Positions 564 to 4,931 of a stretch of 64,000 nucleotides of DNA are shown piece by piece. The position numbers and the translations under genes are program-made. The stretch's first letter is position 1. Every line of letters starts with the position of its first letter. A model generated the notes under the pieces. That model was not told the origin of the DNA and did not search any database. It was given only the letters and a program-made list of their open reading frames with translations. Origin of the DNA: Amphiscolops sp. MND2022. Lineage: Eukaryota. The stretch covers positions 13,456,001 to 13,520,000 of the forward strand of contig OZ076409.1 in assembly GCA_964187785.1 (NCBI GenBank), given 5' to 3'.

Positions 564-3500
564 TTACTGGGTGGCGGAGGAGTGACGCGCTCTGGGGGAG
601 ACGTCGGCCTTTGGTTGCAGTTCGGACAGGGATCCTCTTCGCGTATTTCCTTCTCGCAGGACTGGCTTTGGTTCGGCGCTGGCAGTTTCATGGGTCCTGG
701 GAGTCGTGTTTGAGCCACTAGGGCCATCTTCTGCGGCTACGGGAGTTGAGGCTTCTGGCGAATGTTCTTGCGCTGCATTGGCTGAGCCACTAACATTGGC
801 AGAACTTGTGGTCGACGTGGAGATTGGGATCTGCACGTCCAATCTACTGGCATTAAACAGGTGCGGTAGATCTAGCGGTCTATTGCGGGTGGCAATGGGT
901 CGTTTCTGCTTGGCGCTGAGTTTCGGGCGTAGATCAGGTCGGCCCCAGAGCCCGCAGGCTCTGGACCAGTTGTCCCTGTTTGCATGTTCTATAATTTGTC
1001 TGGAGGCTTCCCATTCGGGTCCGAGGGGATCACTCAGCAATTCCATGACGTGGTAGCAAGTCTCCGCTGGCATGTCGCTTCCCATAGTGACCCTCGCCTC
1101 TGGATTCCAAACAGGCATTGTCAGTGGGGGGATGATCAAACCTTTCAGGCGCCCTTGGCGTTCCTCCAGGGTCCTTGACATCCACACGCCTAGTTTGTAG
1201 TGATCGCGATAGGCGTACTGCTCATCAAAGCCCTTCTCGACCATGCTGATTGGCTTAGCCCGGATATAACCGATGGGTCCTCGCCAGTACCTGGCTGGAA
1301 GCTTGATCATTTGAAAATTATACTCCTGATTTGTGTGACCGCCCATGGTTTGCACGCATTCGGTCACGTACTTTCTGAGGTGTGCGAAACTCCAATTAAA
1401 TCGCTGTGGGATTCCAAGGTGATCTAGGGGCGAATTGTACCAATTCACCGGGCCGTATTCGCGAGGTAAGGGGCACGCCTTCTTCGTTCGGGCTTTGAGA
1501 ATACCGGCCAGGTTTTCGTCTTGCTGCGTCTCATTCTTTATGGTGGTATACATGCGGGGTACTAGCAGAAACAGCCCACGTTCAAGCATCTGTTGATAGT
1601 TGTGCGGTTTTACGTTCTTCAGATAAGTCAGGATGGATACTGTTAGTGTCTCCGAGGCCAGTCGCAGAGGCTTGGTGGGATAGCGAAGTATCCCGGTTGG
1701 GCCAAATATCGGAGTTAGCACGGGTGCTAACACCGGTACAAGATCTTCGACTTCAGCCAAAGTGAAATCTGCCAGCTGGTTAGGTGTCAAAAATCCAGCT
1801 ACCTCGGTCACTAGCTGACGTCCGTCATATAATGGTTGGTGCTTATCCACCCCCACGAAAAGTCCCGAGGCAAAGACCAGACTGCAATATATCCAGTGAT
1901 ATAACGAAGTTGTCATGCGCTCCAGGTGAGCGGGATAATCCTGAGCGTCTTTTCGTTGTAACAGCTTGGCTAAGGCGGTGAGGCCTGAGATATTCCCTCG
2001 TGCAATCACTAAATATGAAAATAGCCATTCCAGATTACACTCGGTAACCAGGTCGGTCAATATCATCATTGGGCCAGCTACGAAGCGTTTCTGCCCGAAA
2101 GTGAGCATCAGTGCAAAGAGTTCGTTTACTTGCATGGTACCGATAATCTCGCTGATTTCGATCAACCAGTTCTCGTCTAAATCGAACTCAACTCGAATAA
2201 CATCGGGACTCCAACCCAATCCCAAACAGATGGCAAACTGGTCGGTTGACATCCCAAGCTCTTTTGCAGTGTCTGCTACGGTGGTAGTTTGTAGCCGCTG
2301 GTACCAGGCGTCGTAGGTGCTGCTGAAGGCTTGGATTTCAGCCTGAGTCTCGCTCGTCAGTTTTGCAGCAATGTACTTCATTCCCACTGATAATTGGTCA
2401 ATTGTGAGGTCCTGGGCAAATTGAACTCGCGGGATGGCTCGTTCTACTTCTCGGTCACTGGGGACTTTGCTCATTATGGCAGTGACTTCCGCAAGATCAG
2501 TTTTAATACAAGTCTTTCCACCGGAGGAGCGCGCGCGCTCTATCCAGTTATTCAGGCGGATTGCCTCACATTCAGCCGTACTGGGTTCTGGGACTCGCCT
2601 TTCTCCGTCGTTGTTGAATACTAACAAGCCCATACGAGTGCCGTGATCAAAATAGATGGCATCATCGATTGTCAGCTGCGCGTTCCCTGTCTTTTCCACT
2701 GACTGTAGCACTTTAGACACTGAGGCAACATACCCCATGTAGGAAAGCCAGGAGGGACGAAAGTCGTTGGAGCTGATCCGCATATTGGGCGCGCAGATCG
2801 CAAAGTCTATTTCTCTACATTTGCAAATTTCTGTTACCATGTAGATAAATCTCTGCAAGGCGGGAGGCCACTGGCAGAAACCTGGGGGTGTCACAAACAG
2901 GGCTGGCACCTTGAGTTTATCCTTTAAGATGTTTTGGGCCTTTTCCATGGCTCGGGCCATGTTCAGTGCTGCGTTGCGTACTGTTGTTCGCTGTGCTGGA
3001 CTTGGATTTATAATTTCAACGTTCGCGATCTGGGCCATTAGTCCTTCACAGGCCATGTGATCGAAAACGTTACTGATGATTACTCTGCGTGGGGGTGGCT
3101 CTTTGAAGGTCCCCGTCATCTCAGGGTCAAACATGGTGACCAACACTTCGGCCATCTCGGGAATACGTGACAGCGGTAGAGTAAAAACCATCACGTCTGA
3201 CAGCACATTGTCAATGGGGACATTCTTGAGGAATGTTGAGTCTATAAGTAAGGCGAAGCGCGCACGCTGCAACCTTTCTTTTGGCATTGGTAGCTGGGCT
3301 TCGAGGTCACGGGCGTACCGTGGGTTGATTTCGAAGGTCTCTCCAGCGTTGAGGAAATATCGATCAGCGAATTGCCCACGAAGGTCAATGTTGAGGGCGT
3401 CCAAGTAATTGTCTTCCACGTTTGGCAGCATATTCATTGCCTTCCCTAGCCATGGCGGCTCATTGGTAGGGGTGTGGTCGGGGCGGATTGGACGATTCAT

Positions 3501-4931
3501 GAATACAGGTACATTCGCCTTCTTCAATTTCGCATGCTCTTCGTCATTCGGAGGACACATGTTCTTCTCAAATAGCCATTCGGGCGATACTATAACTGCC
3601 GATTCCCAGATACGTCGGGAGTCCTTGGTGATCAGTGTGCCCTTTGTGTTTTGCATTGGACTCAGGTACGTCGGTTGTTTCGTAAAGGTCCTCTTAGTTG
3701 GGTGTTGAATTGCCTGTTTGCGGAGTGGGGTTCCAGTTGGACCACTGTTGGTTACCTTCAATCCTGGGTAATCACCCATTATGTCCTTGACAGTTCGCTG
3801 AGATTCAGGGGTGCCTTGATAACCCACAGTTTGCTCCGTTTGTGGCTGTCTTGATGTAGAAGGCTTAGGAGTCGCTCGTTGAGCCAGCGACTCGCGTGTT
3901 GTAGACTGCGTGGATGGTGGCTGCGGCAGTCCTTGTTGTTCGCCTGTTACGTCCGGTTGTGATTGGGGTGAGGGAAGCACGGATGCTTCCGACACTTTTG
4001 ATTTTGTTTGGTTTGGCGTTTTGGAGGTTGTGGTCTTCTCGTTGGAGATCTTTTTGTCGGGTGGTGGCTTGCTCGAGGGGCTGTCACGGGCAGTCAGTGG
4101 TTGTTGAGTCTTTTTTGTTGGAGAAGGGTCGTTGCGTTTTCTGGAGGCAGGGCGGCTCTCTCCTCCCCCCTTTTGAGAAGAGCGGGAAGGCGAACGACTG
4201 CGCTCTACAGTCACGGTGCGGGAGTGTCCTGGCTGTTCAGACTGAGGATTGATGTGGGGAATAGTGATGACATCTTGACGTGTTTGAGTTGAAGTGACAT
4301 TGTCGTTGCGAATAGTAACAGTGGGCAGAGCAATTCGGCGTAGTTCAGGCCAACACTGCTCCATGGATCGCATGAAATCATCGTAATTGGGGTTGACAGC
4401 TACTGCTTGCAGTGCTGAGATGACTGCTTGCTCCGCCATTGATTGATTAGGCAAGTTAGGCACTATAGGAGCAGGAGTGCGCGCACGCACTACTGCTTGT
4501 GGTGTTGATGCAGGAGGTGGCGGTGGAGGTGGAGGCGGGCAAGAAGGGATCTGTAGAGATCTGGTTTGATGGACTCCGCCATTCGCAGGACTGTATGAGA
4601 TCGCCGCACGATCATCCGTAAAGTGATGCGTGAGATCATGGCCGTGCCACACTCCATCTTGGTATGTCATGGATCGTTGGAACCCAGGAAAGCCTGAAGT
4701 AATAGATATCGTCAGCATAGGGGCTTGCAATTGTGACTCCATCTGGGCTATGATTGCCGCCACCCCGGCAACTGTAGCTGGCGACAGACCTTGGTCGAGT
4801 CTGTCTCGAATAAAGGCAATTTGTGGGGTACGTTGGACACGCGCAGTGTCGTAGACGCGTTGCCCCAAGGCAGGAGAGTCATCTGAAGACCTTGGAGGGA
4901 CGTTGTTGCTTCCATCGTTATCTTGGTTCAT
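564..4931 (-). CDS. Gypsy-associated ORF3, ~1455 aa (first ATG 4931; ORF track starts at GTG 5036); Pro/Ser/Thr/Gln-rich N-terminus, central SGNH-fold-like domain, helical C-terminal half; function unknown
   Basis: Uninterrupted 4.4-kb ORF starting ~0.2 kb after the pol stop on the same strand, with GC content like pol. No evident signal peptide or C-terminal transmembrane anchor. Confidence 0.8.
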   Translation of the reverse strand: MNQDNDGSNNVPPRSSDDSPALGQRVYDTARVQRTPQIAFIRDRLDQGLSPATVAGVAAIIAQMESQLQAPMLTISITSGFPGFQRSMTYQDGVWHGHDLTHHFTDDRAAISYSPANGGVHQTRSLQIPSCPPPPPPPPPASTPQAVVRARTPAPIVPNLPNQSMAEQAVISALQAVAVNPNYDDFMRSMEQCWPELRRIALPTVTIRNDNVTSTQTRQDVITIPHINPQSEQPGHSRTVTVERSRSPSRSSQKGGGESRPASRKRNDPSPTKKTQQPLTARDSPSSKPPPDKKISNEKTTTSKTPNQTKSKVSEASVLPSPQSQPDVTGEQQGLPQPPSTQSTTRESLAQRATPKPSTSRQPQTEQTVGYQGTPESQRTVKDIMGDYPGLKVTNSGPTGTPLRKQAIQHPTKRTFTKQPTYLSPMQNTKGTLITKDSRRIWESAVIVSPEWLFEKNMCPPNDEEHAKLKKANVPVFMNRPIRPDHTPTNEPPWLGKAMNMLPNVEDNYLDALNIDLRGQFADRYFLNAGETFEINPRYARDLEAQLPMPKERLQRARFALLIDSTFLKNVPIDNVLSDVMVFTLPLSRIPEMAEVLVTMFDPEMTGTFKEPPPRRVIISNVFDHMACEGLMAQIANVEIINPSPAQRTTVRNAALNMARAMEKAQNILKDKLKVPALFVTPPGFCQWPPALQRFIYMVTEICKCREIDFAICAPNMRISSNDFRPSWLSYMGYVASVSKVLQSVEKTGNAQLTIDDAIYFDHGTRMGLLVFNNDGERRVPEPSTAECEAIRLNNWIERARSSGGKTCIKTDLAEVTAIMSKVPSDREVERAIPRVQFAQDLTIDQLSVGMKYIAAKLTSETQAEIQAFSSTYDAWYQRLQTTTVADTAKELGMSTDQFAICLGLGWSPDVIRVEFDLDENWLIEISEIIGTMQVNELFALMLTFGQKRFVAGPMMILTDLVTECNLEWLFSYLVIARGNISGLTALAKLLQRKDAQDYPAHLERMTTSLYHWIYCSLVFASGLFVGVDKHQPLYDGRQLVTEVAGFLTPNQLADFTLAEVEDLVPVLAPVLTPIFGPTGILRYPTKPLRLASETLTVSILTYLKNVKPHNYQQMLERGLFLLVPRMYTTIKNETQQDENLAGILKARTKKACPLPREYGPVNWYNSPLDHLGIPQRFNWSFAHLRKYVTECVQTMGGHTNQEYNFQMIKLPARYWRGPIGYIRAKPISMVEKGFDEQYAYRDHYKLGVWMSRTLEERQGRLKGLIIPPLTMPVWNPEARVTMGSDMPAETCYHVMELLSDPLGPEWEASRQIIEHANRDNWSRACGLWGRPDLRPKLSAKQKRPIATRNRPLDLPHLFNASRLDVQIPISTSTTSSANVSGSANAAQEHSPEASTPVAAEDGPSGSNTTPRTHETASAEPKPVLREGNTRRGSLSELQPKADVSPRARHSSATQ

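Follow-up and report, generated by a model that had tools for sequence, protein, structure and literature searches.

Why would a retrotransposon keep open, behind its polymerase gene, a reading frame of more than 4 kb that does not look like an envelope (env) gene? To our knowledge, the extra open reading frames (ORFs) in the env slot of retrotransposons with long terminal repeats (LTRs) are mostly without known fold or function. The question is raised by a stretch of 64,000 nucleotides from Amphiscolops sp. MND2022 (contig OZ076409.1, positions 13,456,001 to 13,520,000), hereafter the window, whose numbering we use. Here a Gypsy element carries a third gene, ORF3, at 564..4931 on the minus strand, which also holds all features of the element given below. 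An earlier note on this DNA described an intact ORF of ~1455 amino acids (aa) in the env position with a degenerate SGNH-like core. Its first part is borne out: the frame from 4931 to 564 translates into 1,455 aa without a stop and is enclosed by an LTR pair. Between the pol stop and the ORF3 start are 225 nt, and the 3' LTR begins 1,012 nt past the ORF3 stop, that is, beyond ORF3 and not between pol and ORF3.

ORF3 belongs to the element and occurs in many copies, rather than being a single-copy host gene. An exact pattern at its ATG had 118 matches in the genome, hence at least 118 copies of the family, and a 1.3-kb probe returned 811 candidate sites, of which 40 were scored, each 98–100% identical. 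The 19.2-kb arrangement was colinear in all six copies retrieved, and in ten further copies from the pattern list the 3' LTR end lay at the expected distance in every case and the 5' end in eight. ORF3 homologues with 36–56% identity belong to three additional families of the same genome, which we call B, C and D beside family A of the window. The homologues lie 3' of pol, which is directly upstream in 7/7 homologue regions, one of them with an internal deletion; four of the seven show an LTR pair. Identity tables for the pol tail, for reverse transcriptase (RT)/RNase H and for ORF3 all give the grouping (A,C),(B,D), which fits inheritance of ORF3 together with the element; the table for the integrase (IN) core does not resolve the four families. 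Among eight family-A copies read end to end, ORF3 is open in seven and gag-pol in three, a contrast that is biased because these copies were selected by ORF3 similarity. Searched by profile, 1.84 billion representative sequences yielded 646 matches at E≤0.001. Among the best 150 of these, fragments predominate and a few are just 26–34% identical to the closest family, and the homologue group P0189 retains the entire ORF3 architecture. A distant homologue labelled as a protein of a bacterial metagenome-assembled genome (P0132, on an 816-bp contig) is likely a product of misbinning. ORF3 is a conserved third gene in a clade of 19-kb Gypsy retrotransposons, present in four families of this genome.

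The earlier note had ascribed the 4.4 kb of open frame to selection or very recent activity. Ratios of nonsynonymous to synonymous substitution (dN/dS) by the Nei-Gojobori method were 0.079–0.09 for three family-A pairs and 0.065–0.085 for three family-B pairs, so that selection is demonstrated by values of 0.065–0.09. The comparison of A with C gave 0.073 with dS near saturation, two pairs were saturated, and the RT-IN control gave 0.038. Taken segment by segment, ORF3 yielded 0.035–0.185, nowhere near or above 1. Across 29 family-A loci (one duplicate dropped), the corresponding polymorphism ratio, pN/pS, was 0.061 for variants in at least two copies and 0.284 for singletons; 23 of these loci, which were picked as best matches, had neither stop nor frameshift over the covered part. 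Purifying selection operates during replication, and youth by itself is insufficient to explain the open frame.

What, then, is being selected? The models lead us to predict that residues 555–748 (2688..3269) very probably adopt the SGNH fold, with D564-S565 retained and R725 at the position of the catalytic His. A model of aa 505–815 built from 44 sequences reached a predicted local distance difference test score (pLDDT) of 74.7 and a predicted template modelling score (pTM) of 0.78, and shows the three-layer alpha/beta topology of SGNH proteins. Searched against 48,161 chains, it matched best PAF-AH (PAF acetylhydrolase; Z 9.1, root-mean-square deviation (rmsd) 3.9, 177 aligned), followed by CgnD (Z 8.3), a GDSL lipase (Z 7.7) and the OSK domain of Oskar (Z 7.7, rmsd 4.5, 153 aligned). 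Ten of the 50 match titles state GDSL or SGNH, and the remaining ones, all but two, we take to be SGNH-fold proteins. With this search tool a Z under 8 may reflect a common arrangement, and the weight therefore rests on the uniformity of the SGNH match list. A second model, of aa 430–1345 (pLDDT 45.9), again placed SGNH proteins on top (best Z 8.2, rmsd 4.4, 142 aligned), with lower matches mixed with enolase-type and other rows. The higher-probability natural rows of Foldseek, from the PDB and viral libraries, were mostly SGNH. In a protein atlas, aa 420–625 of P0189 scored 0.91–0.92, with 19 of 30 matches in GDSL-bearing, eukaryotic clusters. The SGNH-like core proposed earlier thus gains support from two AlphaFold models and from the atlas. 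This support comes from structure prediction, sequence profiles alone being not significant. Pfam scans found no SGNH family in ORF3 or its homologues and no Pfam family of any kind in ORF3 at E≤1, profile scans found no match of ORF3 to PF17182 (OSK), and PDB sequence searches with the ORF3 protein and family alignments gave no meaningful match. In profile comparisons with SGNH domains of the same genome, blocks I and II fell into the expected register.

The active-site residues were compared in 12 divergent sequences (four of 16 were omitted as truncated or frameshifted), down to about 25% identity. All motifs quoted in the earlier note were found, namely D564-S565-T566, N621-V-F-D624, T681-P-P-G684 and N722-D-F-R725-P. 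In block I, D564 and S565 never vary among the sequences that cover them (11/11), giving the Ser after Asp of SGNH hydrolases, and a structural alignment to 1vjg starts by pairing aa 563 with residue 15 of the chain, the G in its GDSFV, consistent with this register. Block II, whose register was taken from the profile alignment, lacks a conserved Gly: position 587 is L in seven, H in two, G in two and C in one of the 12. In block III, N621 and D624 are invariant (N-x-x-D), and the Asn may occupy the Gly position of G-x-N-D. Position 725 of block V, before the Pro, is Arg in 11 sequences and Gln in one, never His, so that D-x-x-H is absent, and the catalytic-Asp position 722 is variable among the 12; the register here follows from the spacing of motifs ahead of the last helix and from fold order, not from residue-level superposition. 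The replacement of the His noted earlier holds in 12/12 in this motif register. If the register is right, the canonical triad is likely lost, and with both the His and the oxyanion Gly replaced we read the domain as one that may bind rather than cut. Directly past the core, on a helix, lies a near-invariant G-N-x-x-L-T-x-D-D-A-x-x-x-D-x-G motif (aa 749–764; 2640..2687) identified in the family alignment and the model, in which D756, D757 and D762 are near-invariant. The invariant Ser and this acidic motif suggest that the pocket might still bind something, and they leave room for a changed chemistry.

The remainder of the protein bears on what such a domain might be used for. The ~430 aa of low-complexity sequence described earlier stand for aa 126–430 (3642..4556), a linker that is 48% P/S/T/Q by composition; they do not stand for aa 28–112 (4596..4850), a conserved N-terminal block that aligns across families A–D and P0189, nor for a basic/proline island within the linker. 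This island, RKR ... SPxS(K/R)PPPDK(K/R) at aa 264–294 (4050..4142), is kept in families A–D inside a linker that is otherwise poorly alignable, with R266 and P290 conserved also in the wider alignment, and is by resemblance a candidate nuclear-localisation signal that includes a Ser-Pro site. Behind the SGNH domain, the model shows an all-helical domain (aa 837–1014; 1890..2423; pLDDT mostly 70–90), followed by a conserved C-terminal region (aa 1015–1340; 912..1889) for which model confidence is mostly low and by a disordered tail. A hydropathy scan, with no dedicated predictor of signal peptides or transmembrane segments, found no hydrophobic stretch at the N- or C-terminus. The earlier remark that no signal peptide or C-terminal transmembrane anchor is evident is consistent with these termini, but an internal hydrophobic segment, aa 1064–1082, reaches Kyte-Doolittle values of 1.73–2.28 in all four proteins scanned, so that a membrane segment may be present. 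Judged by its termini, which lack a hydrophobic stretch, ORF3 is not a canonical env.

How ORF3 is expressed can be approached through the spacers between pol and ORF3, which measure 181–295 nt and differ widely between families. In the window, a splice-acceptor-like site recognised by spacer comparison, a pyrimidine run followed by CAG (4942..4952), ends 10 nt before the ORF3 ATG. All six spacers, from four families, have a pyrimidine run and YAG 6–23 nt before the ATG; in shuffled sequences the chance of such a site is about 0.2 per spacer, and that of one per family 0.0015, under a rule that was set after inspection of the sequences. From this pattern, it is quite likely that ORF3 is made from a spliced subgenomic RNA. 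Retrotransposed spliced copies numbered 0 against 118 unspliced ones, a count that is uninformative on splicing, as the pattern used (non-T at -4 and -5) would miss about half of the junctions that could occur.

Three known systems frame the possible roles. CERV of the Cer1 element in C. elegans, also a Gypsy element, is an env-slot ORF without env features that combines a catalytically dead alpha/beta domain with helical domains, as ORF3 may do, and it is required for export of the genomic RNA (PMC10309623). CERV differs in having 517 aa, gag-region exons joined to the 3' ORF, a G-protein-like dead domain and a message known to be spliced (PMC10309623); ORF3 has its own ATG after the acceptor-like site from which splicing is predicted, its fold is a predicted SGNH fold, and its function is deduced where that of CERV was shown. 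The OSK domain of Oskar (PDB 5a4a) is an SGNH fold that lacks the triad and binds RNA (PMC10792757), and was the fourth-best structural match of ORF3, level with other SGNH proteins. It is a host protein of the germ plasm, with Asp in place of the nucleophilic Ser (PMC10792757), whereas ORF3 retains the Ser. ORF1p of the LINE (long interspersed nuclear element) ZfL2-1 is likewise a retroelement-borne SGNH domain, implicated in assembly of ribonucleoprotein particles (RNPs) and membrane targeting, but it is a ~300-aa protein with an active triad, encoded upstream of pol in a non-LTR element (PMC3905857).

We tentatively propose, as a possibility that falls somewhat short of being probable, that ORF3 is a nuclear adaptor that binds the unspliced RNA of its own element and aids its exit from the nucleus. 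ORF3 would be translated from an RNA in which splicing has removed gag-pol; the full-length RNA would hence keep a ~12-kb intron and need help with export. The conserved basic island would bring the protein into the nucleus, and the SGNH domain would bind rather than cut, with RNA as its ligand by analogy with OSK and CERV. The precedent of CERV, the RNA binding of OSK and the basic island are the reasons for which we prefer this proposal. A bolder version, in which a Gypsy clade made a captured lipid esterase into a Rev-like nuclear RNA-export adaptor, reached on its own both Oskar's use of a dead SGNH fold to bind RNA and the function of CERV, and gained a phosphate-binding pocket through the His-to-Arg change, strikes us as unlikely.

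Several observations weigh against a nuclear RNA adaptor, some of them already at the level of the fold. Strand beta1 and the Asp-Ser motif are poorly modelled (pLDDT <50), and three Foldseek searches gave no match at E≤0.001. Profile-profile comparisons with same-genome SGNH domains scored 14.8–20.4, non-significant to marginal; 2 of 240 shuffles equalled the best score, and a reversed control was equally high in earlier comparisons. The atlas matches of P0189 share 146–149 features, below the 170 typical of family members, and the ORF3 protein of the window reached only 0.77 there, with neighbours of VWA type. This VWA lead is weak at 0.76–0.77; D-S-T differs from the D-x-S-x-S of the metal-ion-dependent adhesion site (MIDAS), and SGNH rows lead both structural searches. 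Neither VWA nor fusogen families were among the structural-search rows listed for the models of aa 430–1345 and 505–815, which probed mainly the SGNH core. At the level of function, the SGNH region lacks a basic character (-5 to +3 net charges per 100 aa over aa 501–800), Ser565 is more conserved than a fully dead enzyme would need (11/11), and P0189 shows no evident basic island of this form. Beside the post hoc acceptor rule, no splice donor common to all families was found. RNA binding, nuclear location and splicing are all properties that we infer.

Alternatively, the dead SGNH pocket and its surface might bind phospholipids and take particles or RNPs to membranes, partly replacing env or matrix, which we regard as doubtful. 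The esterase of ZfL2-1 binds liposomes with a negative charge despite active-site mutations, but that binding was ascribed to surface charge (PMC3905857) and the ORF3 domain is near neutral. The conserved hydrophobic segment at aa 1064–1082, the eukaryotic GDSL clusters that neighbour P0189 in the atlas, and an Arg at the His position that could hold a phosphate head group would all suit a lipid ligand; however, the protein has neither a signal peptide nor a terminal anchor, and the basic/Ser-Pro island would be better suited to a nuclear role. It is more unlikely still that ORF3 serves counter-defence, as a decoy or scaffold for a host silencing or RNA-decay factor, acting beside the degenerate macrodomain in which pol ends. 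The presence in one element of two folds that derive from enzymes and have degenerate sites, the recent amplification of several families, and a divergence of ORF3 between families that is faster than that of RT or IN (49–62% and 32–50% vs 82–93%) would agree with such a conflict, but dN/dS of 0.035–0.185, nowhere near or above 1, would not. An altered enzyme, whose hydrolase or transferase site would be a non-canonical one built from Ser565 and Arg725, Asn621/Asp624 and the acidic motif at 756–762, appears quite improbable. The invariance of D564, S565, N621 and D624 and the near-invariance of R725 down to about 25% identity, together with D756, D757 and D762, might point to catalysis, and about half of representative SGNH structures deviate from strict S-G-N-H (PMC10792757). 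Against it, block V offers neither His nor another general base in 12/12 sequences, and one of them has Gln instead of Arg. The view of ORF3 as an atypical envelope or fusion protein, or as neutral cargo open merely through recent transposition, could appeal to the env-slot position behind an acceptor-like site and to a young family A with LTR pairs 99.2–99.9% identical, but is very improbable, as dN/dS of 0.065–0.09 up to near-saturated dS excludes neutral cargo, while the hydropathy scan finds no signal peptide or C-terminal anchor and the folded core matches SGNH proteins.

An SGNH-type ORF3 in an LTR element has a direct precedent, which the earlier note did not name. The Vesta LTR retrotransposons of bdelloid rotifers, Gypsy-like elements, encode a GDSL/SGNH ORF3 past pol that is not an env; their ORFs are ~1.3 kb long with S, G, N and H intact and, within the genome, gave no clear sign of purifying selection (PMC5408684). 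ORF3 of the window is 4.4 kb long and multi-domain, with the His replaced and dN/dS about 0.08, and the likeness does not imply a common origin. Esterase ORF3s in LTR elements are thus already known, and the giant, selected and apparently non-catalytic form is a new variant: we found no LTR element described with a non-catalytic SGNH ORF3 in the literature covered, outside which lay most subscription journals, Repbase and supplements. The gene is large and strongly selected, its recent copies number more than a hundred, and its predicted fold now offers direct tests. If the prediction is true, it would be a second SGNH fold retained without catalysis, after Oskar, with retroelements as a source of pseudo-enzymes.

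Other SGNH genes occur in the same genome. In a different Gypsy family, whose integrase is about 29% identical (L097-L104, e.g. G000:C7:61303640-61304098), an SGNH domain with intact GDS, GTND and DGIHP motifs lies in the frame behind the integrase. Multi-copy intronless SGNH ORFs of ~290–315 aa (L105-L107, L109, L113-L118, L122-L137) resemble LINE ORF1 esterases, and several of them also pass the OSK profile. Beside ORF3, this one genome has an intact SGNH domain that is fused to integrase as well as ORF1 esterases of LINE-like type, which permits a comparison of active with apparently dead versions.

The element around ORF3 measures 19,219 bp, including DNA left of the window. Its 5' LTR (734 bp, TGT...ACA; 17304..18037) is 99.86% identical to the 3' LTR, likewise 734 bp, which LTR pairing places immediately left of the window (G000:C1 about 13454819-13455552). 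Comparison of LTR ends identified the 5' copy of a 3-bp target-site duplication at 18038..18040. In three of 21 copies examined, no 5' end stood where expected; of the 18 with both ends located, 16 have a 3-bp duplication, none has 4, 5 or 6 bp, and the two exceptions are rearranged or damaged at the 3' end. Duplications of 3–6 bp are known for LTR elements (PMC10045372), so that 3 bp is the short extreme but not unprecedented. By domain scan and frame reading, gag-pol (5157..14924) comprises a coiled-coil N-terminus, a CCHC zinc knuckle, protease (PR), RT, RNase H, IN and a long tail. The order PR-RT-RNase H-IN with the gag zinc knuckle, the paired TG...CA LTRs and the short target duplication agree with Ty3/Gypsy. 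A single gag-pol frame of 3,216–3,262 codons is open in three of the eight family-A copies; the window copy has an in-frame stop at 13511-13509 that is absent from other copies.

Macrodomains are annotated in Gypsy elements. The pol end of this one (5169..5633) resembles a degenerate macrodomain of the TARG1 type by its profile match to macrodomains of other elements of the same genome (score 33.1, E 1.4e-4, 143 columns; the maximum of 60 block shuffles was 19.5), and more canonical macrodomains are present in many other long-ORF elements of the genome. A second macrodomain, sought upstream in the pol tail, found no support, with a score of 15.1 inside the shuffle range. No report of a Gypsy macrodomain was found in the literature searched under one spelling.

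The 5' leader, from the LTR end to the start of gag-pol (14925..17303), is 2.4–2.7 kb long, and blocks in its first 700 nt, the portion aligned, are kept between families; they are candidates for an RNA structure or export signal. One 20-nt block with a TGG start (17268-17287) is invariant in 5/5 leaders from three families and begins ~16 nt past the LTR, which is far for a primer-binding site. At the other end, the 3' untranslated region that separates the ORF3 stop from the 3' LTR measures 1,012 nt, and its first part occupies 1..563.

The window contains further repeats. At 18567-23127 on the minus strand, 500 bp beyond the 5' LTR, lies a decayed LTR element that has short direct repeats and whose remnants resemble BEL/Pao in a motif. 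Elements with inverted repeats, resembling miniature inverted-repeat transposable elements (MITEs), are found at 47718-48151 and 34858-34937.

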